From: Bilabrum cf. latius
Taxonomy: Eukaryota
Assembly (NCBI GenBank): GCA_965178125.1
Contig: OZ237748.1
Coordinates: 496,001 to 560,000, forward strand
DNA: 64,000 nucleotides
Direction: 5' to 3'
The notes under the pieces are model-generated. The model was not told the origin of the DNA. It ran no database searches and was given only the letters and a program-made list of their open reading frames with translations. Within the stretch, counting starts at the first letter, position 1. The number at the start of each line of letters is the position of its first letter. Of this stretch, positions 16,486 to 57,252 are shown one piece after another. Position numbers and translations under genes: made by a program.

Positions 16486-16688
16486 TCCCTAGGTCAATTC
16501 CCGCTTGAGGGACAAAATCACCAAATTCACAACCCATCCAAACATGCACCAATCTTCCTATCAGGCCAATCCATCACGACAGGGACCGGTCCCGGCCTCT
16601 GCAACCGCGTATGGACTGATATGATATCCAGGGATAGCCGAGGGGCCCTCTGGGGGGACGGGCGGCGGCCGGCTCGCTAGCAGTAGAT

Positions 16689-17290
16689 GTCCTGAAAGGC
16701 TAATACTCCCCTCCACAGGGCAGCGTTCTGGAGCTGCACCGCCTGCGTCTCGATCCCCATGGAGGCAGGGGCCCGCAGGGACATCAAGAACGACGTAAGT
16801 TTGCACAGCTGTATCATAACAGCACTTAAATCACATATGTACATCATGCTGCCCAATGAATCAAAGAATATTCCCACCCACGAATCCACCCTCCGTGCAT
16901 CCCCGACACCTTGAACCGTCCTATCTTCCTTTCACTTCCTGGATCGAGCAGGCTGGCAAGACTCCAGCGGAGCTTGCAGACACTAGGGGCAACACCAAAA
17001 CCGCCGCTGCCATTCGATCGTTCATTCCATCACGAGTCCGAAGCGCCTTGTGCTGGAGGCAGGCAGTGGAGGCCAAGAGAGGTGCTCAGATGGTCTTCCC
17101 GGCAGCGAGTGAGGGGCGGCCCATGGAGCTGGCCAGGAGGCTGAGGTTGCCCAAGCTGGCAGGTGGGTTGGAGATGGAGGGAAAAGCGATGATTCATGAT
17201 GGGGCTTCTAGGCTGGTGCTTGCACTGGAGGCAGCGATGCTGGGTGGGCAAGATGATTGCGTGAAGCTGCTGCAGCACGCCATAGGGTAA
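16689..17290 (+). pseudogene. 5'-truncated ankyrin paralogue A2 (last two exons only), or alternative 3' exons of A1
   Basis: Exon NTPLHRAAFW...AGARRDIKND|GTAAGT, then terminal exon ~16952-17290 with the RLRLPKL module ending TAA. No upstream exons between it and the A1 stop. Confidence 0.6.
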
Positions 17291-21678: not shown

Positions 21679-23889
21679 ATGTGAGATGATATACTTTGTG
21701 TGGGCATCATGATGCCCACTTCGTGTCTATCGATACCGTACCAACGGTAAATGTTGGACTTGGAATCGACGCTCGGTGGATCTCTCAGTCGATTCTATCC
21801 GCATGCGTATCTGGATGCCTAAGGCTTTAAATGAAAAACTCATGTTTATTTTCAACTACATAGGGGAGACGCACTTCTAGCGGCAGCAAAGGATGGTAAA
21901 GTAGATGACATGAGGGCATGCCTGGATGCGGGAACGGACATCGAATCCAAAGATACCGTGAGATTGAGTGTCATTGAATCGTTTTAAATACGACAGAATA
22001 TGTATTATATCGCTTCCCAAGACAAGGTACGACCTGTCGTAGAGCAAGCCACCTACTTGCTGTCAATCCGCCGATGGACTGTGCCGAGTGAATCTCTCCA
22101 CTGGGCGTGCTTTGTAGGCACCTGCTGACCAAAACCGGTAATTATTAGCATTTTATTCAAAGTCAACATGACAAATGGAAGTAGGTGCCTCCTAGACTGC
22201 AAACCGTGGCACCGACAGCTGCCAGTCGTCCCAAATGCCCTTCCCGGATAGGCCTACACAACGTGTTTCCGACAGCGAGTTAGACGGGGCGACTCACAGA
22301 AACTGCCGTCATGCTGGTTAATATTGCAATCAGTGTTGAGTCATGCAGTGCATTTGCCACCAGCTCCCTCACTGCGCCTCACCGAGTAGGCCTGTACATG
22401 CCCTCATTAGCTACCTCCTGTTCCCCTTGGCGTGCCTCCGTACCTACGGCACACAACTGACGGCTGTTCCGATGTAGGCACATATCCACGGCTGCTTGTA
22501 CATGCTTCGAACTTGCACTATAATACCGCAGGCAGACCGGACAGCAACATGGTGGGCCGCATGCAACGGCAAGACGGACTGCCTAGAGCTGCTCATCGAG
22601 AGGGGCGCCAACATGAACGCTGCCAATGAGGTGAGAGAGAGAGGCTGGTTGCATCCCCCCCCGCCCGGCTGGCCCACCTGGCTCCTCCTCGTGCTAGGTG
22701 GGGCAGGTGGAGCGGTGGCTCGAGGGATGCGGACGCACTGGGCTACGTACCCAGATTAGCGGCAAAGGTACTCAATGATATATCCATGCACTGATTTAGC
22801 TTTGCTTGTTGGAGGCTAGTATATTAGATCGGTGACAGCTCCCCAACGGGGGGACACCCCGGGCATGTTTAACGAGCATGTGTACGCCATTGGCTCCCGA
22901 GGCCCCTGACAGCCGCCGCATGCACAAGCACATACACGCAAATCTTGAGCTCCCACGCCCTGTCTTCCATTCCCCCCACCGCAGGAAGGCTACACACCCG
23001 CCCATGTGGCAGCTGGGTAGGGCCATAAAGAGTGCCTGGCTGTGCTTGCTAGAGGGGACGTGAATGCAGTGGATGATGTGAGAGTTTTGCAGAGAAAAGC
23101 TGGTGGCGAGCGTTTGTGTGCGTTGGATAGGTTTGTATGACTTAAAGGCTGCGGATGAGCTCCCAACGCTAGTGGCAAATTTGCTGCATGTGTCCAAGCT
23201 CGCAAGGACCGCCCAACCAATTGTTTGAAACCATGATGCTGCCTTATGCCATACCCACAATATCCGATTCATTCACAGGATGGAGACACTCCCCTCCACT
23301 GGGCAGCATCCAATGGGCATACCGCCTGCGCCAGCATCCTCATGGAGGCAGGGGCCCGCAGGGACATCAAGAACGATGTAAGCTTGCACAGCTGTTTCAT
23401 AACAGCACTTGAATCACATATATCCATCATGTTGCCCAATAATGACAGAGGCCTTCCCGCCAGCAATCGAACGATGACCGCCAATCCACCCCCGATGCCT
23501 TCCCCCAAACGCCCCCTTCTCTGCCCCTCTCCCTCGCTTCCTCAATCGAGCAGGATGGCTAGAGCCCTGCGGAAAGGGCAGAATTTGAGGACAAACACGA
23601 GACAGCTGCCGCCATCGGGTCATTCATTCCATCTCGAGTCCGAAGAGGCATGGTCTGGAGAAGGGCAGTTGAAGCCAAAAGGGATGCATCGATGGTGTTC
23701 CAGGCAGCTGTTGAGGGCAGGCCGATGGAGCTGGCCAGGAGGCTGAAGCTGGGCAAGCTGGCTGGTGGGTTGGAGATCAAGGGAAATGCGACGATTGAAG
23801 ATGGTGGTTCTAGGCTAGTTCTTCCACTGGAGGCAGCCAGGCTGGGTGGGCACGATGATTGCGTGAAGATGCTAGAGGAGGCCATCTGA
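21679..23889 (+). CDS. Ankyrin-repeat protein A4 (multi-exon)
   Basis: AT 21679-80|GTGAGA; exons start ~21864, 22532, 22985, 23279, 23554. TAG at 23018 (HVAAG*GH) and 23560 (DG*SPAE); ends TGA. Confidence 0.82.
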
Positions 23890-24143
23890 TAGACGATAGA
23901 TCTAGTGCGGGACAACAACGCATGACGGATCAATCCCAAAAGGATTGAGCTACGCAGGCTACGTAGCTGCTCGCTGAGGCTGAGGTGCGCAGTTCGAGGC
24001 GACGCGGAAGAGTTTTGGACACTGGATTTTCTCGCATTCAAATTCAATTTGACCCGAGCACGGTGCGGCTGCCGAAAGAAGAGAAGGGTTCATTTTTAGA
24101 GAACAGAAAGATCCGGATGCATGCGGAAGACACCCCGTTCCAA

Positions 24144-26397
24144 TCACATGACCTCGTAAGCTGGCCCGCCCCCTCCCGCCTCGGGCACAGTCCACTTGAT
24201 GTACTGCCCCGGGGTCTTGATGCTGCAGCACTTGCAGTGCACGCAGTTCTGCGCGTTGATGACGAGCTTCCCATCCTCCTCGGGGTACTCGTACACCCTG
24301 GCGGGGCAGAACCGTGACTCGGGCCCCTTGAATTTGGCCCAGGACAGCTGCTCGGGGTCGTCCTCCTGGCCCGGCTTGATCCTCAGGTGGGAGGGCTGGT
24401 CGTGCTCGTGGTTCGTCCCGCTTCGCTGGAGGTTCGACAGGAGGTCGAAGCTCAGCTTGCCGTCGGGCTTGGGGTACTCGATCTTCTCGCACTCGTCAGC
24501 GGGCTTGGTCTTCTGCGAGTCGGGCTTGTCGTTGTGGAAAGTCCACGGCTCGTTGCCCTTGAGCACAAACGCGCTCAGGCCCGAGTACGCCAATCCTGGA
24601 AGCAGTCCTTGCTTGAAAGAAGGGTGGTAGTTCCTGACTGCCTTGAGCTCGTCCACCACCCAGGAGGAGTCCACTGTTCCCTGATACTCGGTCACTTCCC
24701 GCCCCGCCTTGCTCGCGTCCTCACCCGCATCCAAGATGGCGGCAGCGGCCGACTCGCCCGCATACAGCCCAGTCTGCATGGCCATGTGGGACCCCTTGAT
24801 CTTGGGTACGTTGAGGAATCCAGCGGAGCACCCAGCCAGCATGGCGCCGGGCATGGTCAGCTTGGGGAGGGACTGGTACCCTCCTTCATTCAGACACCTG
24901 GCCCCGTACTGGATGCACTCTCCGCCGTCAAGGAACTTGGCGATCTCAGGGTGGTGCTTCCACCTTTGGAACTCCTGGTAGGGAGACATCCAGGGGTTGG
25001 GATAGTCCAGCCCGATCACGAATCCGATGAGAACGAGGTCAGGTTCCATGCAGTAGAGGAATGAGCCGCCGTACGTGTCCTGGGGAAGCGGCCATCCAAG
25101 CGTGTGCTGCACGTGCCCCGGCTTGAAGAAAGGGTGGTTCTCCGGATCCTTGACCCTCCACACCTCCTTGAGTCCCAGCCCGTAGGTCTGAGGATCCACG
25201 CCCTCCCTGAGGTTGAAGACCTCCATCGCCTCCTCGGAGCAGTTGCCTCTGCATCCCTCCGCTAGGACCGTCTGCTTGGCCCTGACCTCTGCGCCCAGGT
25301 AGAACGAGTCCTTGGGCTTGCCCTCTTTGTCCACCCCCATGTCACTCGTCACGACCCCCTTCACCCCCCCGTCCTCGACGATCAGGTTGGCAGCGGGATA
25401 GGCCGGGATGATCTCCACCTCCATCTCCTCCGCCTTCTCTCCCATCCACTTGCACAGCTGGCCCAGGCTGATGATGTAGTTGCCCTCGTTGTGCAGCATG
25501 GGCGGGACGGGCAGGGGCACGGAGCTCGAGTCGTTCAGCAGGAACTTGAACTCGTCCTCCTTCACCGGTGTCTTGATGGGGCAGGACTCGTCCTCCCTCC
25601 AACCAGGCAGCAGGTCGTCAAGGGCTCTGGGCTCGAACACGTTCCCGGAGAGGATGTGGGCGCCCACCTCTGCACAGGGAAGGAGGGGTAGGGGAACATG
25701 AAGTGCGATCGATTGGTGATAGGTAGGCTACTGGGGTGGGTGGGCACGTGCGCAGCTGTGGCTGGGCGGGCTCTGAAGCTGCCTCGGCAGCAGCAGTGCA
25801 GCGCAAAGTCTCTAGCGCAAACAGCCGGCATTCACACGTTGCAACAGGCGGTAGAAAAATGTCTAACATGCAAAACGAAGCATGCAGCTTGAACAGCACC
25901 CGACGCCAACCGATTGGGCTCAGAGGCATCGCATGCATGCGTGTCGCACTGCCACTCGAACCATAGGGCTAATCTTGGGAGAAAACCCAGAGTCTTTAGC
26001 ATGAACCAAATCTATTAATAACAAAAACGCCATGACCAGACCGATATCCAGGTCAGACTCGAAGAATGTGCCAAAGATAGCCGGATCACTCACCGTGGCC
26101 CTTTTCCAGAACGCAAACGCTGAGTTCCTTCTCCTATTTAGCAGCAACCTGCTTGGCACGAATGGCAGCAGCAAGACCAGCTGGGCCAGCACCAACGACG
26201 ACCATGTCGTATTCCATGACGTCCCGCTCGCCGTTCATGGGGTCTTCGTCTCGCGACGGAGCTGTTGAAGCGATCGACCGCGCTGAGATTGAAGGCCCCC
26301 ACTTGCGCTGGGGAAGTCGAAGCGCCCCGACCGATCTGCAAGCATTCTAAAAACGCAAAGGATTCGATCCGACTCGTCTGGCAATTCTAGCTAGCAT
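24144..26397 (-). CDS. ETFDH: Electron transfer flavoprotein-ubiquinone oxidoreductase, mitochondrial; complement(join(24144..25669,26094..26397))
   Basis: FAD motif YDMVVVGAGPAGLAAAIR. Splicing rebuilds EKGHEVGAHILSG. 4Fe-4S motif FCPARVYE...NCVHCKCC. Arg-rich presequence. In-frame TAG at 26347-9 and 26134-6; ends TGA. Confidence 0.96.
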
Positions 26398-27581: not shown

Positions 27582-28752
27582 TCACACCTCAGAGCGAGGC
27601 GGCAGCCAGTACTTCCGGACCGTCTTGCCCTCGCCCTTGCTGTCGCTCTCGCCCACAGAACCCGCTCCCGCCCCAGCTCCCGACCCAGCTCCAGACCCCT
27701 CTGATTCTCCAGCATCGGCGCCCACTACCACCACGAACCCGTCGACCTCCTCCTCGCCCGCACTCGTCACACCCGCACTCGTCACACCTTCAACCGCGCC
27801 GTCCTCGACCCACACGAAGCCCCCCAGCACCAGCTGCCTGAGTGCCTCCTGGGCCCGGGGCCTGGGCCAGCTGAGGGCGCCTGCCACCTGGTCTGCGAGG
27901 AAGGGGGGGGGGGTTGAGAGGGGGGGTGGAAATTGCGCTTCGAGGGCACGGGGAGAAGCAACGGAAAGAAGCAACGAAATGAGAGGCGCATCTATCCATC
28001 GATCGATCGATCGATCGATCGATCCATCAATTGCCTATTTCTTCTATCTCACCGACGGACCATCCCCACCTGCCCCCCGCAGCACCACCATTCCCTGCAC
28101 CCGGGGGTCTCCCGGTGAGCACCACCGCCGCCCTCTCCTAGTCAACGGATAGTTCCCGGGGAACACTCATCACAGCCTCGATGGACGCACCACCACCGCT
28201 GCTGCTGCTGCTACTGCTGCCTCTTCCCGATGCAGCTGCACCACCACTCCCTCCCCCGCTTTCCGCGCCGGTGCCGCTCAGCTTGACGATCCTCGCCCCG
28301 CCCCCCAGCTTGTCCAGCCCCTTCAACGCCGTCTTGACGTCATCACTCGTCACACCCCTGTCCCTGGCCCTCCTCGCGTTGATCATCGACACGAGCTCCG
28401 CCATTGGAAGAAGCCCGCCGTTGATTGGTCTCGTCCGCAGGCAGCAGTCGAGCACCTGCACGCCCAGCTCGTAGTAAAACTGACCGACTCCCAGGTTTCT
28501 CGCCCAGAATCCCCTTGAGCTCTGCAGCGGATCCACGCCGATCACGCTGCACATCGACGCGAACTCTCTGCGGAACACGGGATCCTTGGCGATGTCGTCG
28601 CTGTGCTTGGTAGCAAACTCCATGAGACCTTTCTAGAAAGTTTCCATGGCCCGCTCCATGTGCTCTGCCTGCTCTGCCATGAGCTTGGCGCCCTCCGCGG
28701 CGCGCTTGGCCTTGAGTTCTTGCTGCTCCCGAAGGCCGGCTCGACCAAGCAT
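27582..28752 (-). CDS. SNF8: ESCRT-II subunit Vps22/SNF8/EAP30; complement(join(27582..27892,28053..28752))
   Basis: EFATKH...DPVFRREFASMCSVIGVDPL, FYYELGVQ, SVPREL and C-terminal winged helix (LSWPRPRAQEALRQLVLGGFVWVED...YWLP). In-frame TAG at 28633-5 and 28138-40; ends TGA. Confidence 0.93.
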
Positions 28753-28941: not shown

Positions 28942-30613
28942 ATGAGAATCTCAGATTCACGCAGATTAGTGCAGAGACTGGCGTGGTCCGCGCGCTGCCG
29001 GGTGCAGGCCGGGGTTAGGTAGCTTTCCGCCGCCGCGACAATTGGCCGCAGCTCATCGAAAGCGTCGGGCAGCAGCCGTCGAAGCACGGAGCAGCTCGTG
29101 GAGCAGCACCGATGCAACATCAAGCATATTAGTGGAAGCGTTCGTTCGCCGCCCCAGGCAGCGGGCCGGTGGAGACTTGGCGGCGGTTGCTCGCCTCGCC
29201 GGTTCCACACGTCAGCAGGCGCTCGGTTGTAGCGGACGAGCATCGCGTTGGAAAGAGGCGTCCGGCGCTCCGATAATGCTCTTGTGACATCCACGGGAGC
29301 ACGATCCGCCGGCGATTTGCAGGTCGGCGCCGCGCAAGCCATGAAGCCGACTGTGTTTGACGAGTACAACCTAGTCCAGGAAGACGCCACGAAATCGAGG
29401 ATCATGGCGATTGATGATTACGGGTTTCAGGTGAGCTGGATGAATTTTATTTCATGGGGTTAGGAGCGGGGGGGCGGCAGGGCGCGCATTTCTGCGCGCT
29501 ACGTTGGGGCAGGTTCAGGCTGCTGGTTGCTGGCTGCTGGTTGCAAGTTGCTGGTTGCTGGGGCGACCGACCGACCGACTAGGCCAGCAGGCAAGCTGGA
29601 ATGATGGAATGCTGGCATGCATGCTGCAGCAGAATCCGAGAGCAGAGCCACCCCGCCCCCCTCCTCCCCCCTCCCATTCGCCACACACGAGCATCCCCCA
29701 CCCCCCCCCAGTCGTCACTCGTCACTCCCCACTCGTCACACACGCGCAGGTGAACGGCAACCACCTCCGCGGCAGCGTCATCGTGTTCCCCACCTTTTCC
29801 CTCCTCTGGAAGGTCAACCACCTCGTCAAGATCACCCCCGAATCCCTCGTGCCCGTGCTGCTGCCCAAGCGCCCCCGGATCGAGTTCCTGGTGATCGGAT
29901 CAGGGCCCTCCCACGGGGTCATCAAGAACATCAACCCGGAGATATACGACTTCTTCTCCAGGCGGGGCGTGGCAGTCGAGGTCATGTCCACGGACCAGGC
30001 GGTCGCAACCTTCAACGTGCTGGCACAGGAGGACAGGCCCGTGGCTGCCGCCCTGTTGTCCAGGCAGCCCACCACCCCCAAGATGGCCTCGGCCTACACG
30101 AGGGGGGGAAGAGGTTTCGACCCGGAGGCCTACAAGCTCAGGAGCGCGGCACGGGCGGGGGCCGCCGAGGAGGCCGCGGCGCTGCTGGCGGGGAACAACT
30201 CGGGGAGTGATGGTCCCCCCGGGGCTGCAGCAGCCGGAGGAAGGGGGGGCACACCCCGGGTGGAGGAGGGGGGCCTGTTCGGCGGAGGAACGTTCGGCGC
30301 TGACGGGGGGGACAGCATCAGGGAATGGCTGGGGATGGAGAGCTCCGACCCAAGGGCATCAGGTGTGCACTAGGACGGCGAAAGTGCCACCAACCTGGAT
30401 GGCCTGGTGAAAAAAGGAGGCGGGGGTGGTGGTGATGGGCACGATGCCTTCACGGATTCCAGGGGGAGGGTCAGGGGCGCCGATACGCCCAGCAGGAAGA
30501 GGAAGAGGATGGCGCTGAAAGGGTCTCCCCCCAAATTCTACGCCAACAGGGGGGCAGGGGGTTACAAGAAGCCGCAGGAGGAGGACGGGCAGGACTGGGA
30601 GAAGAAGAGCTGA
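28942..30613 (+). CDS. NDUFAF3: Complex I assembly factor NDUFAF3 (Mth938/DUF498 domain); join(28942..29430,29750..30613)
   Basis: IDDYGFQ|VNGNHLRGSVIVFP, IEFLVIGSG, GVAVEVMSTDQAVATFNVLAQEDRPVAAAL. Mitochondrial presequence-like N-terminus. TAG at 29020, 29230, 30371; ends TGA. Confidence 0.87.
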
Positions 30614-31258
30614 GGCATGAGATGGACGGTGAAGGGGGGGGCGGGGGGGGGTACAAGAAGCCGCAGGAGGGGGACGGGCAGGACTGGGAGAAGAAGAGCT
30701 GAGGCATGAGATGGACGGTGAAGGGGGGGGCGGGGGGGGGTACAAGAAGCCGCAGGAGGGGGACGGGCAGGACTGGGAGAAGAAGAGCTGAGGCATGAGA
30801 TGGACGGTGAAGGGGGGGCGGGGGGGGTACAAGAAGCCGCAGGAGGAGGACGGGCAGGACTGGGAGAAGAAGAGCTGAGGCATGAGATGGACGGTGAAGG
30901 GGGGGGCGGGGGGGGTACAAGAAGCCGCAGGAGGAGGACGGGCAGGACTGGGAGAAGAAGAGCTGAGGCACGAGATGGACGGTGAAGGGGGGGGCGGGGG
31001 GGTACAAGAAGCCGCAGGAGGAGGACGGGCAGGACTGGGAGAAGAAGAGCTGAGGCACGAGATGGACGGTGAAGGGGGGGGCGGGGGGGTACAAGAAGCC
31101 GCAGGAGGAGGACGGGCAGGACTGGGAGAAGAAGAGCTGAGGCACGAGATGGACGGTGAAGGGGGGGGCGGGGGGGTACAAGAAGCCGCAGGAGGAGGAC
31201 GGGCAGGACTGGGAGAAGAAGAGCTGAGGCATGAGATGGACGGTGAAGGGGGGGCGGG
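30560..31258 (+). repeat. 87-89 bp G-rich tandem repeat, 8 copies, each containing the last codons and TGA of NDUFAF3
   Basis: TACAAGAAGCCGCAGG recurs at ~30563, 30652, 30741, 30828, 30916, 31003, 31090, 31177. Confidence 0.95.
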
Positions 31259-31526
31259 GCTGATACCGGGGGTGGTGCCTGTGAGTTATGCCACAAGGGC
31301 GCGTGCGCCTAGCGGGCGAATATTCCGATTGCTAAGACGTCCTGTGCCTATGTTTATTCTATGTCTATGTCTATGTCTATTCAACCGACCAAACTGCCCT
31401 GCTGCACCCAAAGCATCCCCATGCAATGCGGCATGCTTCCCATGCAGGCAGGAGGCATTGCATCCCCATGCCTCCCCCCTCCCTCTCCCCGATCATCTCC
31501 CGTTCCCCCTCTTTATCGCGATCGCT

Positions 31527-32055
31527 TTACCCCTTGAAGATGTTGATGACTTTCTTGGCGGTCCTCGAGTGCCTCGACATGACCTTGACGAGCTGCTGCC
31601 GGATGCTGCCCTTGACCTGGCGACGAGCGCGAATGGCCTCCGACCACTTGAACTGCGATTAAAAAAAAAAGGGATTGAGTGTATATGTACGTAATGCATC
31701 TTGGTGCATGGCAGCGTGCACTGCCAAGGGGGCTGCACACCACGAGGTCTAGAAACAATTACGTCTGCTACTCCTGGTCCATCGCGTCTCGGCAGCTCGT
31801 TCACCCGACTTGCGCACTCACAGATCCTGTTTTGTCAACGCACGCAGTTAAGACGTCACGCTGGTGCTGGCACTTGGAAATGTCGTCGTCTGACCTCTCC
31901 AGGCAGGCGAACAGCTCCTCCGTCTCCTGCGGGCAGGGCTGAAACCACTGGAAATCGCCCCCTGTCCCTGCATAGAACGAAACTGCTTTCTAGTGGTCCA
32001 TGTTCAGGTCCCTCCATCGAAATCCTCGCAATCCCTTGTTGTACTTGGCCGGCAT
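31527..32055 (-). CDS. Twin CX9C (CHCH) protein, probably mitoribosomal mS37/MRP10-like; complement(join(31527..31652,31822..32055))
   Basis: MPAKYNKGLRGFRWRDLNMDH*KAVSF...PCPQETEELFACLERSDDDISKCQHQRDVLTACVDK|FKWSEAIRARRQVKGSIRQQLVKV...IFKG. Canonical GTGAGT...TCGCAG intron, TAG 31990-2, ends TAA. Absent from the ORF track. Confidence 0.78.
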
Positions 32056-33023
32056 GATGGCCAGCGAATTGCTTGACTGTTTGGTCGACGAGCCGAGCTA
32101 CTGTTCGCTTCTCAACCTAGCTAAAAGCAAGCCACAGCTTGGATTTTTATGCAAATTAAAGTCTGTAGGCGTGAATCTCGCTACTAGAGCTGTGTTGTTG
32201 CAGTTTTGTCCGCGCGCGGTCTCGTGAGATTTGGCTGACGAGTGCTCACCAGTGTGGGATGGTGTGCAGTGGGTGTGGCCCGTGTTGTGGAGCGAGCGAG
32301 AATCGGGATTTAGCACGGATGGCAAAGAGGCCAAAAGCAAACACACTATTTCGTTCGAAAACTGATGTTTTTCGTTCAATTCTCGCGTTGATTTTGTTGT
32401 TGTTGCTGTTGCTCGGCAGGCCCCGGCGTCAGGTGCCGGCGCTGTGCCACGAGGGAAGCTCACCCCCCTCCCGTGGCACAGCACCGCCCTGCCCTCTCCG
32501 GTTCCGATCCAGCGGCATCATCCACGCATGCATTGCATGGTGGTGTTGGTGGTGCAGCACAGACGGCACGCCGCCAGTGCACACCACCGCCATCACCACC
32601 ATCATCGCAGAAACGCCGCTGCCGGCGGGTCGCGGGGAAAGGGCACGAAACACTCGTGCCTTTCCCCGCCGCGATCCAAAGCGATGAGACGAAAGAAGCA
32701 GCGGGGGAGGAAACACTATTCCCACCCCACCAAATTCTTCCCCGCCCCCCCAAAATCGAATCGCACCCAAACTCCGACGCCTGCACTCTCCCCCCGTGCC
32801 CAAAAAGAGGCACACGGGGAAGAGCGCCTGCAGACCGGTACCGGGACGCGCCCCCATTCACACCCCATCTACCCCAACAACCCCCCCCCCCCTGGGAGAG
32901 GGGAAATGAAGGGGAGGCATGGGATGAGAAGGGGACGCGCCCCGGCTCCATATCCTTGCAAGTGCGCGCGCGCGCGCGCACGCCATTCCAAATTCCACCA
33001 CCACGCACGCATCGCCTGCATGC

Positions 33024-33860
33024 TCAGAAGTAGATGGAGAAGGGGGGTCCCATGGTGCTCTTGATGATGAGCACCTTGATGTTCTGCCACCCCTTGCGCA
33101 GCTGGGAGGCGAGGAAGTTGGCGCCCTTGAGCACATTGGCCTCGATGTCCTCCTGCGACATGCCCACGTGTGCCACGGCCACGTTGATGGTGTTGCCCTT
33201 CTTCATCTGGTACTTGACGGTCAGCTTGGCCTCGTTCACCTTGTTCTCCACAGTGTCGGCGTTGGGGATCACGGTCGGGAACTTGCCGGCCTTGTTGAGG
33301 CCGGTGCCGATCAGCCTCGTCAGCTGGGTGATCACGGGCTGCGAAGCCAGGAACATGTCGTAGGACTTGGCCATCTTCTTGATGAGCTTCTTGTTCTTGT
33401 TCAGCTTCTTGAGGTCGGGCACGGAGCGGCAGTCCACGCCGAGGGCCTTGGCGTCACCGACGTGCTTCTCGGTTCCCAGCACGCAGAGCTTCATGTTGGG
33501 GCGGGGAGCCGCAACCATGGTCACGGTGCCGTTCACCTTCTTGTCCTTCTTCTTGTCGAAGCCCTTGATCACGGCCTGCATCTCGATGGTCTCCACGAAC
33601 TTGCGCTGCTTGCCGGCCTTGCTCTCCTTCACGGTCTCGCCCACCTTGTGGCGGTACGGGATCTCCTCGCCCTTGCTGAAAGCAAGCATACGAGTGATTG
33701 CGGACTTGAGCACATCAGCGGGGATCTTGGAAGCCCTGCGGTTGTTTGAGAAGCGTAGAAGCACACGGGTTTCCAAAATATGCAGCAATCTCACGATATG
33801 ATCATCCACCACGAGTATCAATCAACGCGATTTATAAATAATTAATATAGTTGCTTACAT
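33024..33860 (-). CDS. RPL10A: 60S ribosomal protein L10a (uL1); complement(join(33024..33735,33859..33860)), ATG split by intron
   Basis: RKFVETIEMQ, LKKLNKNKKLIKKMAKSYDMFLAS, GLNKAGKFP, GWQNIKVLIIKSTMGPP. AT|GTAAGC...CCGCAG|G GCT TCC AAG gives MASKIP; ends TGA. Confidence 0.95.
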
Positions 33861-34169
33861 TTTTCCTGATACTACTTTATTTTCTTGGAGCCGAGCAAGC
33901 CTGCCGAGAACTATGGGCTGGAGCAGTTTGTGGTTGGGATCGGATCATCACCCGGACGATGTGATGAGTGCTCATGCAATCCGGAGTCCACCGCATCGGA
34001 TCACAGATTTGTCCACCGTCCAGGATTCCAAGGAGGTATACAAGTCTAGCTCTCCATCTGATTATATTTATTCGGCAATTGAACATTGGTAGTACGCAGA
34101 TTTGAGGCGTCCATCACATCTGCCCAAACTGCCAGTCGTTGACAAGATCGGGAAAACCAGCACTTCACG

Positions 34170-36181
34170 ATGTCGAACGTTTGGAGCATGATCTGCAACC
34201 TGATGGTTGAGCATTATGATTTGAATGTAGCAAAGGAGTTTGATGTATTTGGCGGAACACTAATCAGCCGGCGAAGTTTCGGCGACGTGTGCAACAGGTG
34301 CGGATTCTCGCAGACGAATCGGCAGCTGCAGGTGGCGGAGCATTTCCTGCAGGCCATCGCCAATGCACGAGTGCGAGGTGAAGCCGACACGCAGAAAGAA
34401 CTCTAGCATATCATCCGATACTGCCTCACGGCATTCTGTAAGGTAACTGGTGTATTCTCTCAGTGGCAAGCAGCCTCGAGCGGCAGGCTGCCTCCCGGAT
34501 TCCCGACCTACAGGGAATGGCGTAGGCTGAAGCCGTTCAATGGAACGGGTCAATGTCCCACAACGCACGTCCTCTCTGAAAGCGCCGTGTGTGTAATTCT
34601 GGACGACCCCCGCAACAACACCACGAGCGACCGGGGGCAGGCATGGGGCGAGAGATGCGTCATGAGGGGAGACAGCCAAAGAAGGAGGCCACTGCCAGGC
34701 ACCACTGAGGGGAGGGGAGCAGCCGCACGACCGCGTGGGGGCTAGCTAGCGGTAGGGGAGGGGCGAGCGGCAGGTGGAGGCAGGCACTAGTCCACGGTGG
34801 ACATGGTGGCGCCCATTCTACTGCAATCGACTGCTTTTAAATAGGCTGCAGCAATTGCGGGGGTACCAATCGCACCGACGGCCCAATCGTTCACCAGCGG
34901 TGCGTCAGGCACCGTCGACTCGGACTCTTCTACACAGCGAGGAACCCTACCGCAGTCCGGAAGAAACCAGCCGACGCAGGCTGCTGCAGCTAGTACTACC
35001 GGGCTGGAAGGCGACAGTGACGAGGAGGACGATATGGTGCGGGAGACTGCGGCAGAGAGAGAGGAGCGGCTGTGGAGGGACGCAGTTCCAGACGTGCAGA
35101 TGATGAAAATCCGGCTGCAGCAAGGGGCCGACATCAACCACCGGTTCAGCACCGTGAGATCAATCCAAAAGAGATCAATCAAACGCGTTTCCGTACTCGC
35201 AACGTGCGCGCGAGAGCTTCGATATGGTATACTTTGAGCTCCTGGTCCTGACATTCATGATCAATAAAGACTATCGCAGACCGGTGGAACTCTGCTGCAT
35301 CCCGTTGTTATGACGCATTCTGCGTATGCTGCAGCGTTCTTGGTCGAAGCAGGAGTCCAGTACTGGGTCAAAGACCGGGTGAGAGGTGCCTGACATGCGC
35401 TTGCAAACTGCTTGCTGTGTGTGGTTAGGTTGAGTGCATCTACTGACAGCTACATGCAAGCTTCTATAAGGATTTATACCAGCCGAATGTCTTGGCCTCC
35501 CAGGATGGACAATCGGCAATTCAACTTGCCGAGCAGCTCGAAGACGAGCACGTGATGGGACAGATACGGGCAAGCATCCGAAGGCGAAAAATCCGAAGCC
35601 TGCTACTGTGGAAACGAGCGCACCTGGCGCAGAAAGACGCCAATCTTGTGCTCTTGGCCGCTGCGAACGGATGGCCCATGGAGCTCGCGAAGAGACTGAG
35701 GCTGGGCAAGCTCGTAGGGTCGTATTCCACGATTGGTCGGCTGCAAGCAGGACCACCCAGGGAGCTGATCCGATGCAGCCCGCTAGATGCAGCGCGTCTT
35801 GGAGGGCACAGGGAGTGCGCGAGTCTCCTGAGATAGGCGCTGAAAGCAGATCCTTGTGCGCGGGGGCTGGAGGCGACTGCGTGTCGCCCTGAAGCAGCAC
35901 GATTGCCTTGCTCTTGGATTCTGCTCGACGAGCGCGTTCGCCAGTGGGAGCGCAGGGTGCTTCCCATGGGCTTGCAGGTGTGGACCGTGCCGTATGCGAT
36001 CCCCACACCAGAAGGTGTAGATGCACATGCTGGCAATGGCAAAGGCCGACAGGAGGATCAGGGATCGTCTCGTGGAGAGGAGCAAGGGTAGACTGTGGCA
36101 TGGGAGGCGGATGCCATGTGGGCCCAGCTGTCTGAGAATTGGTTCGAGGGGAAGGACCGGGGCAAAGCCGTGCGTGATTGA
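34170..36181 (+). CDS. Ankyrin family B1: unrecognised Cys/His N-terminal domain, linker, ankyrin repeats, RLRLGKL module, C-terminal extension; exons ~34170-35153, 35280-35378, 35504-36181
   Basis: Exon 1 is open for 984 nt if its four TAGs are sense (no TAA/TGA). Collinear with paralogue B2. Further TAG at 35834 and 36089; ends TGA. Confidence 0.78.
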
Positions 36182-36637
36182 TAGATCAATCTATGTGTGA
36201 CGCTGAATACCAGGACCACTTGCTGAGAAGGACAGTGGACCAGGTTCATGAGCATAGCAGGTGCTGCTGTACGGACGCAGGTGCAAATGCATGCTACTAG
36301 CAGCTGATCTTCGTGACACAAGTGATATCCAACAGATAATCTAAAGCTAGTCTCGCTGACGTGCATTGGCACAACTTATTCGAATAATGGATTGTCTGAG
36401 AACCTGGCAACCAATCCGGAATCCGGATTCCGGATGCTGTCCAATCTAGTGGGTGTGATGAGTGGCTGGTGAAAGAGCCCAATTTGTCCATGCAATCGAT
36501 ACCAGGACCATACTTACTTGTTGAGTATACAATCACAGAAGCAGCTGTATATATCCAGTTGTAGCATGTTAACACAAGCTAGTGCTTGGACTGGTACATT
36601 GTATCAAAATTTGCAGAGCACTGGCAGAGATCGTAGC

Positions 36638-38762
36638 ATGAACAAGTCGTATGTCTGGAACATGATCCTAAACCTCTCAATCGAGCACCTGTCGCAAAAC
36701 CGCAGCGTAGTGCAAGAATTTGAAGTTTTCGGCGGAACGTTGGACGCACCGGTTCCGTTCAAAATTGTTTGCGGCAGATGTGGATTCTCACAGACATCCA
36801 GGACGGAGAAGGTAGCACTCCATTTCCTGCAAGCCATCGCAAATGCTAAAATGCGAGGAGCAAACGTTGTTCATACTGAGCTCAAACACATCATCAGGTA
36901 CTGCCTCACGGCGTTCTTCAAGGTATCCGGGACATTTTCGCAGTTGGAAGCAGCCTCGAGCAGCGGGCTGCCTGTAGGATTCCCAACGTACCGGGAGTGG
37001 GTTCAGCTGAAGCCATATAGGGATTTCGGCCAGTGTCCGATCACGCATGTTCTGTCCGAGAGTGCTATCCGTATTTACTTCGGAGACGAGTAGCAAAACC
37101 TAGGGCACGGGGCACTGCTCAGGCGAGAGGCCGCGCGCACCAGTCCGGCCTCATCAGACACGGATGCTGTGGCTGGGCTCCTCCTCGAGTCTCCCACGTT
37201 CAGGAAGGTACTTGGACTGATAATGTCCGCTGAGAATATGCCGGCGACTGCTTGGGATAGAGCCCCTGAGGAGCGCAGTGGAGCTGCGATACGGATGGCA
37301 GGGGTCGAGCCTGAATCTGAGTCTACGATGAGCGCGCCAATGGGATCATGCCTTTCAAGAAGTTCTGCAAGAAGCATGAGTCGGAGCAGGAGCCAAAGCG
37401 CTAGCCGGAGCAGCGTTGAGGCCAGCGATGACAGCAGCGATGACAGCAGCGATGACGACTCGAGCAATCAGAAGGGCGGCAATCAGCTCGAGCCCGAGTC
37501 TGAGGAGTGCTTGATGGAACGGCTATGGCCGATGCGGAGAGACAGCGGCAAGAGTAAGGAGGAAACGGACCAAGTGCGAGAGGACAGGCGATGGATGAAG
37601 GCATGGCCAGATGAAGATAAGCTGAAGAAAAGGCTAAAGCGCGGGGCCAATATCAACCATCGCTTCACAATGGTGAGTTCAATACACTTTGGCTGTATTT
37701 GATTACCATCGCCAGGCACAAGTCGCTCGGCCATATGATGCCGTTACTTGGAGCAGTTGAACGTCTGAATGAGCGATATTTGTCTGCCTGGACGTAGTTG
37801 TGCTTCCTAAGCATTCTGTGCTGACTAAAACCGCAGACTGGTGGCACCTTGCTGCATTTGGCCGCAAATTGCGGCAAACTTGCTATACTAGATTTTCTCT
37901 TTTCGGCAGGAATTCAGCATTGGATTAAAAATCGCGTGAGACGTATACATTCAGTCCGGATCAGACTGGTCTGCACAGTTCGATGCACCAGCCAAAGTTT
38001 TGTCTAATTGTTCCTATAACAACTCTGTTGTTAGCATAGCATGTGATCAGCAGGTACTCGATTCGCATGTCTCTCGCGCAGGATGGCCTCACTGCACTTG
38101 AGCTTGCGCGCACCCAGCGAAACTCTCTGACCGCCCGACGTATAGAGGCCAAGGTACGCCAGCAGAAAATCCACGCGATGCTGCGGTAGAGGCGGGCGCA
38201 CGAGGCCAGCAGGGACACGAGTTTCATTTTCACAGCCGCTGCGAACGGATGGCCCATGGAACTAGAAAAGAGACTGAGGCTGGGCAAGCTGGCGGGGGGG
38301 CTCAGAATGTGCGGCTGGTTGTAGACAGCGAAAGGGCAGCTGATCAGCTGCACACCTTTAGAGGCTGCTCAGCTTGGTGGCCATGAGGAGTGCGAGAAGA
38401 TTATCCAAAATGCTCTCAATCAGACGTCTCACAAGGCGGCACTGTGTAGGCGGACTCAAGTGCATCACCCCCGCCTATGCCGATTGCCTTGCTCTTGGAT
38501 TCTGCTCGACGAGCGCGTTCGCCAGTGGGAGCAGAGGGTGCTTCCCATGGGCTTGCAGGTGTGGACCGTGCCGTATGCGATCCCCACACCAGAAGGTGAA
38601 CATGCACATGCTGACAATGACAAAGGCCGACAGGATGATAAGAGATCGTCCAGTGGAGAGGAGCAAGGCTACAGCGTGGCATGGGAGGCGGATGCCATGT
38701 GGGCCCAGCTGTCGAAGAATTGGTTCGGGGGGAAGGACCGGGGCAAAGCCGTGCGTGATTGA
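36638..38762 (+). CDS. Ankyrin family B2, tandem paralogue of B1; exons ~36638-37672, 37837-37935, 38082-38762
   Basis: Same domain order and intron positions as B1. TAG at 37091, 38187, 38322; ends TGA. Confidence 0.76.
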
Positions 38763-39115
38763 TAGATCAATCTATGTGTGACGCTGAATACCAGGACCAC
38801 TTGCTGAGAAGGACAGTGGACCAGGTTCATGAGGAGTCCAGGCGCTGGACGAACTCGGTCGGAGATTAATGCTCTAGTCGGGGAAGGATCTTGTGATCGA
38901 CTGGCGAGGTGCTATTCCAGTTGGAGTCTACACTGGGGAAAAAGAGAGATCAGCCTCTGCGCTAGGCAGGATTAGCAAAGAAATACAGAAGCAGCCTAAG
39001 CCAGTAGCTTTCTTCTCTGGCACGGCCTGCGACGCCAAGATGCGCTGGAAGCTCTGGGCACAACGACCAGTCCACAGCTGAATTCAGATGAGTCGCAGGC
39101 CCAATCCACATCCAT

Positions 39116-39720
39116 TCACATGAACTTCGCGTCTCTCAAAATATCCTCCGCCTTGTAGTGCCCGCGTATACTCAAGCTACTTCGCCATGCAGGCTCCATA
39201 CGCCTGGCATACTCGTTCAAAACCGCTCTCCAATAGCACATGATGCCTGAGAATGTTAGATATTCGTGAGCAAACCGAGCTGACGCCTGTGCCATAGCCT
39301 GTGCTTCCGCAGGGTGACCCTGCAGGTACGTGATAGCCTCACTCACGTTGCAAAGGCTTGCAGTCTAGCACGCGAACGGCATAGAGTGCTTGTATGGCTC
39401 GAGACCCACGTGGTACCACTCTCTACATTTAGAATTTTCGATAAGTACTGTAGATCCTGAGCCGAGGATCTTCTGTAGTCGATAGCTGTAGGTATTCCCC
39501 CCCGTGTGGATGAGGTACTTCCAGTAAGCTTCCTGTGGGACCTTCTCATCGCAGTTCCCTTCCCCCCGCGTCGTCCGCGCTATCATCGTTTCCTTCTGCT
39601 ACTTCCTCGTCGAGCTGATCCTGTCTGTCGAGTTCGTCTCGTCCCCTCCAGCGCACGGCACTCGACCGTCCAGCTCCCTTGGCCACTTGCTGCCCCACTC
39701 CCGCTGCCGGCTCCTTCGTC
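39116..39720 (-). CDS. Glycosyltransferase family 90 (CAP10/POGLUT-like) C-terminal portion; 5' part not resolved, possibly a pseudogene fragment
   Basis: WKYLIHTGGNTYSYRLQKILGSGSTVL...EWYHVGLEPYKH...AITYLQGHPAEAQAMAQ...FAHEYLT...CYWRAVLNEYA. TAG 39365-7 joins ORFs 39365..39586 and 39116..39346 in frame; ends TGA. Confidence 0.7.
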
Positions 39721-39754
39721 TTCTACCTTGTATACTTCTGCTTCTGCTTCTACT

Positions 39755-39925
39755 TCACACCCTTTGTCTGCTTCTTGCCTCCCTACTGCTCCCGCCTGCA
39801 GGGCCTCACTTTCACACCCTTTGTCTGCTTCTCGCCTCCCTACTGCTCCCGCCTGCAGTGCCTCACTTTCACACCATTTTTCTGCTTCTTGCCTCCCTAC
39901 TGCTCCCGCCTGCAGGGCCTCACTG
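39755..39925. repeat. 57-bp tandem repeat, 3 copies
   Basis: CCTCCCTACTGCTCCCGCCTGCAG recurs three times at 57-bp spacing. Confidence 0.85.
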
Positions 39926-40503
39926 CTCCGCAGACTCGGGTGGGCCTTTGCTCTCCTCCACCGGTGTCGCCAACTCGGCTGCGGCTGCCCCGGCCCCCTA
40001 CCTGTCCAAAGGGGCTGCTGCCTCTGGAGCTGCACCTCTGCTCCCAGCTGTCCAAGTCGCCTAGCAGTTTCCTTCACCCCGCTGGCCTCGTGCAGCATCC
40101 CAATGGACCATCGACCACCAGCAAAGGCTTTTTAACGCGAGCGCAGTTGCATCGTTCAGGAATCAGTCAATCCGTCAATGCACGACAACGAAGCGGAGGC
40201 TAGCAACCATACAGTATGGCATGGGTGTGATGTACACATCAAAGCACCCAAGGTAGAAGTATGGGGCAAGAATAGGCCAACAGGGGGACGTGGACAGCTA
40301 GAAGGGTTTGAAACGGCTCAAGCGAATCTGCCTTGTCTTCGACGGCTGCTCCTGGGAGCACGGGGAGTTGGACCTTGATTTGGAGCTCGAAGCGATTCCT
40401 TCTCAGAGAAGGTTCGGCACCGTCAAATCCTGTGGACTTTTGCCCTACCTGCAGATATATCAAACAGGAATTCGTACTCAAACACTGCTACTGCTATTCT
40501 ACG

Positions 40504-42261
40504 ATGTGAGGCCTTTGGATTGTGGGAAAGGTGTAGTACGGTGGATCGTTCGAGATTACTGCCAAACACCTTCTACTCTTTGATATCCACAGGTCTAATT
40601 CGGTGGTCAAGGCAGCTCAAAGAGGTGATGTAGAAATGCTTAAAGCTGCTCTACGCTCAGGTGCATCGCCAGACTAGGTAGGCAAGGTGAGGGCTTAGCA
40701 TGCTGCTGTTGACGTAGGCACAGGCCAATTCTTGCTTTCTCCTAGGCCTATTGAATTATGCAATTGCACTGTTGCGTGTTTTTTTGCGTACATACATCAC
40801 AGGCGTATTCTGGGTATTCTAACACAGACATGACTGCTCTGCACTGGGCTGCCTTTCATAAGCACTCAGGCTGCCTGCAACTCCTTGTCAATACAGATGG
40901 CAATGTGCATGCTGTGGATAGCGTGAGGGAATTAATGGATATTACCAGATTCATTTGATCGAGTTCGCTCCATGGCGTTGTTGTTGCTCTATCGGTGCGA
41001 GACCCTTGGCGATTCTGAAGGGAGCCGCCCAGCTGAGCCTATGCCTGTCTGTGCGATGACCGGGCCCGGGCCGTCAGTCAGTGCATGGCGGTCAGGGCGA
41101 AATGTAACGCGCCGTGCTTTCCCGTCTAGAAATCTGTACCTGCGTGTATGCGCAGGTTGGTCTCACACCACTTCACTGGGCGCTGGTGTCTGGCGACTAC
41201 AAGTGTGTCCGAATCCTCGTGAATGCTGGCTCCGACCTGTCGGCCCGTACCGCCGTGAGTGTCATGCACCATCGAGTAGAGTGCAGTATCCTAAGCCTAT
41301 GAATATTCTCTTGGAGGCGAGAGTCACTGCGTCGCACCCGGGGGGGCGGGGGCGGGGGCGGGGGAGGGGAGGGAGTGCCATCGATCCGGCAGTCGCATGC
41401 ACCGATGAATATGCAGACACGCGAGACACGCGATGATCCCATCCGTTCCCGCGCACGCACTTACACCCCGCAGCCCGAATACAACAACACGCCGCTTCAC
41501 ACAGCTGCCGTCAATGGGCATTATCGGTGCGCAAAGCTGCTTCTGCGAAGAGGAGCCGATCGAAAGGCTGTTAACCGTGTAAGAGCACAATGGAAATCTA
41601 CCCGTCCGTTTGTGGGGCAACCCGATGCATGTGGAGGTGAACACTATATTTGTGCACTGCATGCAGCCTATACAACCGCATGTCGCTTCCTGGAGTGAAA
41701 TGATACACGTGGCGGGCGTAACCTCCATACGTTGCTCGTGCCCCTGCACACTCTACACGGCCGCAGTCAGAGGGGCTTACTCCAGCTGGGCGAGCAAGAA
41801 AGGCGGGGCATCACAAAGTAACAAAACTGATTGAGACGTACAAGCCCAGGTCCTTGCGCATGGTTCAATGGCGGCGTGCAATCGAGGTGCGACGCGATGC
41901 ATCGATGGTGTTCAGGGCAGCGAGCTAGGGCAGGCCCATGGAGCTAGAAAAGAGGCTGAGGCTGGGCAAGCTGGCCGGCGGGCATATAGCTCGTGGATTC
42001 ACTCCTTCCGGATTCTATGTGTCCCCACTAGAGGCAGCGGCTCTCGAAGGGCATGACGAGTGCATCCGGGTGCTATAGGGCGCGGGAGCTCCCATGCCGG
42101 GCGGCGGCTTCAACAAGATCGTCATCGAGCACCGCAAAATGAAACGGTCGGGCGAGGCACCGGAAGGGAGCCGAGCTGATTTGGCTAGCACAGTCTCCAG
42201 GCTAGCTGCGAGGGTACAGTCACTTGAAGAGCAGGTAGCACGCCTTGGATCTCCGAGCTAA
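40504..42261 (+). CDS. Divergent ankyrin-repeat protein A5 with short coiled-coil-like tail (multi-exon)
   Basis: AT 40504-5|GTGAGG; exons start ~40593, 40803, 41156, 41474, 41767. TALHWAA, TPLHWAL, TPLHTAAVNGH, RLRLGKL module. TAG at ~40675, 41926, 42076; ends TAA. Confidence 0.8.
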
Positions 42262-45640: not shown

Positions 45641-45646
45641 TCCCGT

Positions 45647-54864: not shown

Positions 54865-57252
54865 TTACCGCCCCTTGGCTTCTTCCAACAACTTCGTGCA
54901 CTCGTCATGCCCACCCAGCCTCGCGGCCTCCAGTGGAAGCAACAGCCTAGACCTCCCATCTTCAATCGTCACATTTCCCTCCATCTCCAATCCACCGGCC
55001 AGCTTGCCCAGCTTCAGCCTCCTGGCCAACTCCATCGGCCTGCCCTCACTCGCTGTCGGGAAGACCATCTAAGCATCTCTCTTGGCCTCCACTGCCCGCC
55101 TCCAGCACATGGCGCTTCGGACTCGTGATGGAACAAACGACCTTATGGCGACCGCTGTGTCGGGTTCGTTTCCTATGTCTGCTTCTTCAGCAGGTGTCTT
55201 GCCTTCCTGATAGACAGATGAATGGAGGGAGAGAGAAAGAGCAAGTAAGGTGGAGGGGCGTACGGTTCGTGGGACACAGGAAAATGGATTGATTGATGGT
55301 AGGTGATTTTTTTGATATATCGGCTAACATGTTGGATAGAAAGGGGACAACATATAGCTATTGCGATGCAGCTGTACAACCTCACTTTGTTCCTGATGTC
55401 CCTGCGGGCCCCTGCCTCCAAGAGGATCGTGGCACAGGCGGTCTCACCACAGTACGCTGCATAGTGGAGGGGAGTCCGTCCATCCTGCGTGCGGATGCCG
55501 ATGGGGCAATATTGTCATCCAAACTCTCAAAGGGACAGTTGTTGTGAGTTTGCATGCATTCGGTATCTCCGCCACTAGGATGCTCTGGGGGAAAGCCACC
55601 GCTACTTCAAGATCACCAAGAACCACACTCATACCTTCACACTCGCCCAAACCCAACCCACAAGTCACACATAAGCACAATGAGCCAAGCTCTCAATGTT
55701 GCTCTCACCCTATCCACCGCATACACATCACAGCCTGCCCCAATCAAAATGGTCATAGCCAATGCTTCGCCATTCATTGATGCGATATGGACAGGTGTGG
55801 TGCCTATCTGCGGGGGGGGAACTGGGATGCGAAAGGGGTCTAGGGGGTTGCGTGGATACGGGGAGCAGGGTGAATGTTAGTTGTGCGTGTTTGTATGCAT
55901 GAGGCGGGTGCTGGGTTGTGTGGGGAATGCATCGCGCACCGGTGTGATTGCTTGTGAGTCTACTAGTCTCTATTTTGCCTTCACGGCATTTCATTCCGAT
56001 AGAAACCGGTGCCGAACTCTGAATCTGTCTAGGGGCCGAGGCAGCCTAGGGGCTCGTGCGGGATTGGACACCGACCGCATCACTGCATACCGATCTCCTA
56101 TGCCAGTGAACCATACCTTGTGGTAGTACAAGCCATGCACTGAGCTGTCAAACACATCAAGTAATTACTGGCCCAAATAGTTGGTCAACTCACGTTCTTT
56201 CCAGCATTCACGTTGGCGCCCCTCTCAATGAGTAGCTTCAGGCAATCCGTCTTTCCGGAGTAAGCAGCCCACCATGCGGCTGTATGACCAAGCTGCAATT
56301 TATTTATAAGAAACCAAGCATTACCTAGCAGGAGCGAATGGCAGAACATCTGGGATGAATGCAACCCGATGGTTTGGACGAATCGGGGGAGGGAGGACGG
56401 GAGGGGAGGGGGTGTGAATGGTAAGCGGGGTAGCACACCGTGCTGAAGGCAACACAAAGAGACTATCGGAATGTAATGGCAAAGAATCCATCCTGATCTC
56501 GGCCGGTGCAATGCGATGCTTCTTGCATCCCCGTGTCCGCATTCTCCACGCTGACTGATGAGCTGTCTCGCCCCTCGCAGTGAGCATCGAGCAGGCGATC
56601 GGCCATGGACAGGAAGTCGCTGGGAAGGAGCCAACAAGATGCTGAATATCAATGCCGTGCATTTGTAAATACAGACAAACCATGCCACGGCGGCGATGTC
56701 GAGTGCCCCCCTCACGGCCCTGCCGCCGAGGCTGTCGGTGCCACGGCTTGCTGGCGAGAGACGAATACCTCCGATGTGCAAAATGTTGTTAAATGCAAAC
56801 ATATCGCGGAATCGGCTTGTTTATGCTTACAAAGCATCGTCCGGCAGCGATACTCACTCGGCACAATCCAGCGGTAGATTGAGAGCCGATCGATCCCGGA
56901 TGGCCTGGGTTTAATTTTAGCGAGCGATAAACCTAAGAGTAAATGACTTGCCAATGACACTGGATCTCACTCCATCTTTGGATTCGATGTCCGTTCCCGA
57001 ATCCAGGCAAGCCAGCAACTCGTCGACTTTGCCATTCTTTGCGGCTTCTCGAAGTTTGTCTCCCCTGTGAAGTCAAAAATGCTATGATATTATTCCGTCG
57101 GACAAATTTGAGCAAATTCAATTGATCGAGGGACCGCAATACGCCACGAACAGTGCATACAACATAAACCTAGCCTACTACGCATTGGTATCATACTCAG
57201 TTTATTCCGATAGTTAAGTCTAGGTTACCCATGCACATTTCTAGCCTCACAT
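54865..57252 (-). CDS. Ankyrin-repeat protein A8 (multi-exon)
   Basis: AT 57252-1|GTGAGG; exons start ~57064, 56292, 55807, 55484, 55206. TAG 55069-71 lies opposite CAG in A2 and A6; ends TAA. Confidence 0.82.

Follow-up and report, generated by a model that had tools for sequence, protein, structure and literature searches.

The nuclear code used in the window (i.e., the whole 64,000-nucleotide stretch of DNA that was analyzed) very probably reads UAG as glutamine and keeps both UAA and UGA as stop codons, UGA being the commoner of the two here. The evidence base is this 64-kb window and one 6-kb contig from a relative. A table-15-like code (TAG as a sense codon, TAA and TGA as stops) had been proposed for this DNA in a first-pass annotation; it holds against orthologs, paralogs, and codon statistics, and the amino acid has now been assigned as Gln. 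An ordinary two-exon gene for a protein with a CHCH domain illustrates the code on both counts: UAG occurs inside it as Gln22, and UAA ends it.

Genes of the window, the CHCH gene, and a related contig

The window is eukaryotic nuclear DNA with a GC content of 50 to 64%. Its introns are of the GT..AG type and measure 87 to 424 nt, and it contains a number of long tandem repeats. Genes were sought in stop-to-stop frames in which TAG was treated as a residue, combined with Pfam and PDB comparisons, and the following were delimited (coordinates, strand, and identity):

10561-13446, + strand: FG-GAP/mucin/TM protein
14000-24000 (+ strand), 34100-42300 (+ strand), and 47000-57000 (- strand): ankyrin family, ten paralogs (A1 to A8, g34, and g36)
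26397..24144, - strand: ETF-QO
24144..24146, - strand: TGA stop of ETF-QO, immediately 3' of the conserved C terminus
28752..27582, - strand: SNF8/VPS22 (EAP30, E 1.1e-39)
28942-30613, + strand: NDUFAF3 (DUF498, E 2.5e-24)
32055..31527, - strand: CHCH gene (PF06747, E 4.3e-8)
end at 33024, - strand: RPL10A (TGA stop at 33024..33026; TGA is also codon 236 of the ortholog on the related contig L001)
end at 45647, - strand: GH43 protein

Runs X5, X6, and X7 are presumed to be RNA. Their contigs bridge exons over GT..AG introns, and the DNA run X1 is without such joints. Spliced contigs from X5 to X7 confirmed the introns of ETF-QO, SNF8, NDUFAF3, CHCH, RPL10A, g34, and A5. The only mapped poly(A) site, that of RPL10A at 32349, is marked by the poly-T loose end of a contig; it gives the RPL10A mRNA a 3' untranslated region of ~675 nt (32349-33026) and is followed on the same strand, after ~290 nt, by the start codon of CHCH. 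Neither AATAAA nor TGTAA was found upstream of this site, so that 3' ends are not predictable from sequence. A transcribed and spliced locus at 42533-43784 on the - strand (intron 43641-43783; contigs of X5 to X7) yielded neither a convincing reading frame nor a convincing family match, and it was excluded from every count.

The ten ankyrin paralogs lie in segmental duplications, and most of their repeats correspond to one exon each. They share a C-terminal domain of ~110 residues that has no Pfam match. Longer tails are present in A1, g34, and g36, the tail of A1 ending in a WW-like segment, and g34 and g36 also possess an N-terminal domain of ~150 residues with only a faint match to SesA (E 0.009). 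Both ends of the window are rich in repeats, and large satellite-like arrays occupy positions 1-7000, 7646-8814, 44671-45644, 57642-59599, and 60409-64000. The spacing of open reading frames in the array at 1-7000 gives a unit of ~1311 bp; the right end has 325-bp and 128-bp arrays, and GC-rich 43-bp and 63-bp arrays are internal.

The CHCH gene is made up as follows:

31822..32055, - strand: exon 1, 78 codons, with the ATG at 32055-32053 and the twin CX9C domain (PF06747, E 4.3e-8)
31990..31992, - strand: in-frame TAG at codon 22, read as Gln; L001 has TAG at the same codon, and 8 of 9 family members have Q
31653..31821, - strand: intron of 169 nt (GTGAGT...CAG); contigs of X6 and X7 join 31652 to 31822
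31530..31652, - strand: exon 2, 41 codons, in gapless codon alignment with L001:5412-5534
31527..31529, - strand: TAA stop at codon 120, where L001 has TGA

Because contigs of both X6 and X7 make this junction, the intron is genuine and so is the frame. The internal TAG at 31990, the TAA end at 31527-31529, and the low-complexity sequence beyond it, on which the first-pass annotation had built its case, were all found where it had placed them; the sequence 3' of the TAA is G rich and contains an (ATAGAC)n run. The product is of the twin CX9C type, with matches to PF06747 (see above) and PF16860 (E 1.1e-4) in Pfam and two CX9C motifs in a helix-loop-helix arrangement. PDB matches at E 0.6 to 0.7 provide a weak lead toward the mitoribosomal protein mS37 as its possible identity.

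A search with CHCH exon 1 led to P0001 (64% identical), and a scan of all cluster representatives led to 13 matches. Nine of these 13 were used in the family alignment; the long multi-stretch proteins P0217, P0225, P0226, and P0228 were omitted. A metagenome scan with P0001 as the query gave no matches. The metagenome scan that yielded contigs L001 to L005 provided a single relative, L001, with L002 being doubtful and L003 to L005 being chance matches. On L001 (positions 1-6055; 52% GC), RPL10A, CHCH, and the terminal part of NDUFAF3 follow the order and orientation of the window, NDUFAF3 being convergent. CHCH exon 1 is 81% identical to L001:5001-5234, and the window and L001 genes align without gaps over 120 codons, of which 52 are identical, 49 differ synonymously, and 19 differ nonsynonymously.

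The gap between the convergent NDUFAF3 and CHCH genes of the window holds an 87-bp tandem repeat (30549-31259; 8.1 copies, 97% matches). Its unit consists of the last ~16 NDUFAF3 codons and the TGA together with the initial 3'-flanking bases; the C terminus and stop codon of NDUFAF3 have thus been tandemly multiplied into the gap. Cover by X5 to X7 is zero in the bin 30640-31303, in the region of this repeat, where DNA contigs break as well; no conclusion was based on this zero. L001 is without the repeat, and ~390 nt separate the NDUFAF3 and CHCH stops there.

UAG as a sense codon and its amino acid

Codons were counted in 19 gene parts and 15 ankyrin-repeat exons (5936 codons in total), each backed by external homology, paralogy, or spliced contigs. 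In frame, this set contains 28 TAG, 0 TAA, and 0 TGA codons. The two off-frames of the same 5936 codons contain 46 and 32 TAG, 19 and 31 TAA, and 133 and 120 TGA triplets, respectively. The reading frame thus admits TAG as it would any other triplet but keeps out TAA and TGA. Several apparent TAGs that open ankyrin exons are intron acceptors (TAG/exon) and were left uncounted, and ankyrin exons missed by the generic pattern (e.g., the exon with a TAG at 48452-48454) were left out of the counts. The ankyrin exons were partly delimited as frames free of TAA and TGA, which makes their contribution mildly circular; the 3061 conserved-gene codons are independent of that procedure.

In-frame TAGs occur in single-copy conserved genes, namely, ETF-QO (2 codons), SNF8 (2 codons), NDUFAF3 (3 codons), and CHCH (1 codon). 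Those outside CHCH that were followed individually are listed here:

28633..28635, - strand: SNF8 codon 40, TAG, facing human K and yeast Q in a gapless alignment; no other letter in the covering contigs (X5, X6, and X7)
28138..28140, - strand: SNF8 codon 205, TAG; 95 homologs have Q (45), H (19), gaps (16), others (15), and Leu (0)
26134..26136, - strand: ETF-QO codon 88, TAG, facing H of the pig enzyme (2gmh) in a gapless alignment; no other letter in the spliced contigs covering it (X6 and X7)
29020-22, 29230-32, and 30371-73, + strand: three TAGs of NDUFAF3, all spanned by X5 contig record 11 with 0 other letters

ETF-QO codon 88 is located between the FAD-binding glycines (GxGxxG) and the conserved VC.(L/V)EK segment. 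Editing is ruled out, because the spliced contigs of X5 to X7 (presumed RNA) keep the TAG letters unchanged. L001 retains the TAG at codon 22 of the window's CHCH gene, and the 7 TAGs of this contig also include one in RPL10A and three in a secreted-looking protein of ~390 codons (883-2061).

The CHCH column that contains this codon has Q in 8 of 9 homologs and R in the remaining one, and it lies inside a nearly invariant H-Q-K-A stretch. The 120-codon ortholog alignment revealed two extra TAGs in L001, both of which face CAG codons of the window. At SNF8 codon 205, Q is found in 45 of the 79 ungapped homologs. Leu was observed neither at the two SNF8 sites (0 of 95 homologs at both) nor in the CHCH column (0 of 9). 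Three further sites are uninformative on the amino acid: SNF8 codon 40, where the 95 homologs have R (60), K (28), Q (4), or gaps (3); ETF-QO codon 88, with its H in pig; and the TAG of L001 RPL10A, which corresponds to AAG in the window and to Q, F, or H in ribosome structures. Among the ankyrin paralogs, the partners of TAG include Q, K, E, I, L, W, and Y. As judged from these alignments, no reading other than Gln agrees with the conserved columns; the non-Gln partners (K, E, H, W, Y, and I) are consistent with missense drift, a fit that falls short of proving Gln at every site.

Two ankyrin TAGs, at 38187-38189 in g36 and at 48452-48454 in A6, stand in columns where the sister genes have Trp (nine other paralogs) or a mostly aromatic set of residues (W, W, W, and F, with G in one), respectively. 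A single G-to-A transition separates each of them from TGG. Where TAG is sense, TGG-to-TAG changes of this kind are missense rather than nonsense, and these two TAGs may mark relaxed selection on g36 and A6.

Two other accounts of the TAGs bear on this reading. Under the standard code, they would be pseudogene lesions, sequencing errors, RNA-edited sites, or sites of programmed readthrough, an account that draws some strength from the multicopy nature of the ankyrin family and from the TAG of g36 in a column that is Trp in the other nine paralogs. It is contradicted by the TAGs of single-copy housekeeping genes, which are spliced and have contigs with the same letters, by the L001 ortholog that keeps the same TAG, and by the frequency of TAG, which is as high in frame as off frame in a set where in-frame TAA and TGA are absent. 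The standard code is refuted for practical purposes and retains next to no probability. UAG might instead encode another amino acid, such as Leu (as in exLh and three TARA ciliate MAGs), Glu, Lys, or Tyr. The variety of residues facing TAG in paralogs and orthologs (K, E, I, L, W, Y, and H) could be cited in its favor, as could the first SNF8 site, which is mostly R or K. Yet the sole strongly conserved column, that of CHCH, is Q in all but one homolog, two TAG/CAG ortholog pairs occur in a single gene of 120 codons, Q predominates at the second SNF8 site in the absence of Leu at either SNF8 site, and the remaining partners are single-base neighbors of TAG, as drift would give. An amino acid other than Gln is therefore very unlikely, and glutamine remains the preferred assignment.

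UAA as a stop codon

The gene ends that could be defined in the window (n = 17) comprise 13 TGA, 4 TAA, and 0 TAG codons. The first-pass annotation had counted about 15 ends in TGA and 4 in TAA; the four TAA ends stand, and the TGA ends number 13 among those defined here. Its statement that no gene end needs TAG agrees with the absence of such an end among the 17, and its assignment of TAA ends to ankyrin paralogs A2, A8, and A5 (17288, 54865, and 42259) and of TGA ends to their sisters (20953, 23887, and 50183) was reproduced. One of the checks that it had suggested, a count of in-frame TAA in conserved domains, gave none in the 5936 supported codons of the window. In L001, all four visible gene ends are TGA, and thus the use of UAA as a stop is demonstrated for the window's organism only.

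The absence of in-frame TAA was weighed against the codon bias of the set, in which CAA and CAG occur in a ratio of 36:144. If TAA and TAG followed the same ratio, 7.0 in-frame TAA codons would be expected (P of observing 0, 9e-4), and stratification by gene class raises the expectation to 9.2 (P of observing 0, 1e-4); none was observed. The AAA:AAG or GAA:GAG ratios lead to expectations of 7.5 to 9.6. The 3061 conserved-gene codons alone predict just 0.9 TAA. L001 contains 0 TAA and 7 TAG in 748 codons, with ~2 TAA expected; both samples, that of the window and that of L001, are small.

The TAA of the CHCH gene can be compared with an ortholog. The L001 gene shares the last four codons and then has TGA in place of the TAA, likewise as codon 120, and a distant homolog (P0219) ends no more than one residue away from the window's TAA. 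This TGA at the position of the window's TAA is, at the level of sequence comparison, the decisive evidence for UAA as a terminator. Reading through the TAA would add 351 codons, which run through the 87-bp tandem repeat into the antisense of the NDUFAF3 coding end. The other three TAA ends all belong to one paralogous family, the ankyrin proteins. The stop columns for A2 and A8 were taken from a DNA alignment of six C termini, and the sisters A3, A4, and A7 end in TGA at 20953, 23887, and 50183, respectively:

17288..17290, + strand: TAA of A2, in the column occupied by the TGA in A3 (20953) and A7 (50183)
54865..54867, - strand: TAA of A8, one codon past the A3/A7 stop column, with a 68-codon tail to the next TGA
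42259..42261, + strand: TAA of A5, a gene with 5 introns confirmed by spliced contigs, with a 42-codon tail to the next TGA

In A2, two consecutive TGA codons (TGA TGA) follow two codons past the TAA, and A2 alone is non-discriminating; the TAA of A5 was judged without a comparator ortholog. The codon-usage log-odds fall across the TAA from 0.47 to 0.06 in CHCH, from 0.11 to -0.21 in A5, and from 0.28 to -0.25 in A8. A BLAST alignment of g34 with A5 that ran beyond the A5 TAA was rejected as spurious past that codon. Counting of stops by six-frame, all-against-all BLAST of the paralogs was dropped, since all six frames of these genes align, a consequence of their location in recent DNA duplications.

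Codes of the NCBI table 6 type, in which UAA and UAG both encode Gln and UGA is the sole stop, are known from many ciliates, hexamitin diplomonads, some ulvophycean green algae, and Amoeboaphelidium. They share UAG = Gln with the window but use UAA as a sense codon, which is absent from frames and terminates here. On this reading, TAA would be rare because of GC richness and the apparent TAA ends would be internal, an argument that can point to a GC3 of 0.57 to 0.92, to CAA being far rarer than CAG, to the exclusively TGA ends of L001, and to the A2 TAA, which is only two codons from TGA TGA. It does not accommodate the lack of any in-frame TAA where 7 to 9 are expected or the fact that each TAA in a coding frame sits exactly where homology ends. 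Nor does it explain why the CHCH ortholog ends in TGA at the same codon, and the extensions that it implies (351, 42, and 68 codons) have the codon score of noncoding sequence, that of CHCH being antisense to NDUFAF3. A table 6 code is strongly disfavored and has very little chance of being correct.

Codons that serve as stop or sense according to context are known from Condylostoma, karyorelicts, and Blastocrithidia, and UAG could similarly have a dual meaning here, being sense internally and a stop near some 3' ends, as in Condylostoma and the karyorelict ciliates. In A3 and A7, a TAG does lie two codons ahead of the TGA, and termination at the former would be indistinguishable at this resolution. 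The sisters, however, have sense codons (ATA, AAG, ATC, and ACA) in this A3/A7 TAG column, and the homology of the conserved genes runs up to TGA or TAA, with TAG needed by none of the 17 gene ends. The counts relevant to dual use (0 of 17 ends requiring TAG and 0 internal TAA) come from a sample too small to exclude its rare occurrence. A dual UAG is considered improbable, and the code with UAG as Gln and with UAA and UGA as stops is retained.

Host lineage, decoding, and comparison with known codes

The closest named relative of the window's ETF-QO is that of Cafeteria roenbergensis (63% identity). In a FastTree phylogeny of the window sequence and the 120 best of 7952 matches, ETF-QO groups with Cafeteria in a six-member clade (support, 0.74) nested in a clade of 10 (support, 0.88). 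A protein atlas search with ETF-QO added nothing on taxonomy. This single-gene tree gives a weak hint that the organism may be a heterotrophic stramenopile. For SNF8, no relative with more than 49% identity was found. The presence of ETF-QO, NDUFAF3, and the CHCH protein indicates aerobic mitochondria. The window's organism and the organism behind L001, at least two related species, have the code in common; since at least one relative shares it, the code characterizes a lineage rather than a single assembly.

Decoding is predicted to require a tRNA-Gln with the anticodon CUA, which would pair with UAG and not with UAA, and an eRF1 that has lost or weakened its recognition of UAG while keeping that of UAA and UGA. 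No tRNA genes were detected in the window, L001, or L002, and the window has no Rfam match and no eRF1 gene. According to the decoding rules laid out in PMC5304391 and PMC11687900, a CUA anticodon reads UAG only, whereas UUA would read both UAG and UAA.

In practical terms, gene callers that assume the standard code would truncate 15 of the 17 end-defined genes at an internal TAG (a count that includes exons outside the counted set), and the variant table is needed for annotating this genome and metagenome contigs related to it. The result is practical for annotation and of moderate interest to specialists in genetic-code evolution. The codes reported in PMC5304391 and PMC11687900 to split UAG from UAA are rare (Iotanema, exLh, and three phyllopharyngean events), and they bear on the question of whether the two codons are tied together mechanistically, through tRNA(UUA) wobble and eRF1 recognition. 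An independent replicate would be gained from one more lineage, represented here by genomic DNA with introns, by spliced transcripts, and by a relative that shares the code; in it, the predicted tRNA-Gln(CUA) and eRF1 changes would be directly checkable. No account of this code in a stramenopile or in a GC-rich aerobic protist came up in our literature search, which does not prove that none exists.

The uncoupling of UAG from UAA is itself not new. As reported by Panek et al. (PMC5304391), it was first described in 2017 in the rhizarian exLh (UAG = Leu) and in Iotanema spirale (UAG = Gln), and McGowan et al. (PMC11687900) described it again in 2024 for three events in phyllopharyngean ciliates. 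In exLh and in three TARA phyllopharyngean MAGs, UAG is reported to encode Leu, with UAA kept as a stop (PMC5304391 and PMC11687900); the uncoupling is alike, but the amino acid differs from that of the window, where the test for Leu gave none.

The closest parallel is Iotanema spirale (Metamonada, Fornicata), an anaerobic flagellate for which PMC5304391 reports UAA as the primary stop, UGA as an additional stop, and a T32G change in the GTS motif of eRF1. The three codon assignments are the same as those proposed here, as are the predicted tRNA-Gln(CUA) and altered eRF1. In contrast to Iotanema as described there, the organism of the window is aerobic, has a GC content of 50 to 64%, and ends 13 of 17 genes with UGA. 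The ciliates Hartmannula sinica and Trochilia petrani are likewise reported in PMC11687900 to read UAG as Gln, a reassignment that arose twice, with UAA as the stop in ~87 to 92% of genes and UAG accounting for 18.5% and 31.8% of Gln codons. The window resembles these two ciliates, as so described, in the reassignment of UAG only and in a sizeable UAG share (28 of 208 Gln codons, 13%), and it differs from them in being dominated by UGA and in its 87- to 424-nt introns, GC richness, and long tandem repeats, which are not ciliate-like.

Being aerobic, GC rich, and rich in ordinary spliceosomal introns, the organism is neither Iotanema nor either of the two phyllopharyngean ciliates. The chances appear evenly balanced that the window represents a further independent origin of UAG = Gln with UAA as a stop, in an aerobic, GC-rich, intron-rich eukaryote outside the ciliates and metamonads; if it does, uncoupling would be independent of an AT-rich genome dominated by UAA stops. 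The finding most likely constitutes a new lineage for an already described code. The uncoupled UAG = Gln cases presented in those two papers have UAA as the main terminator, whereas that role falls to UGA here.
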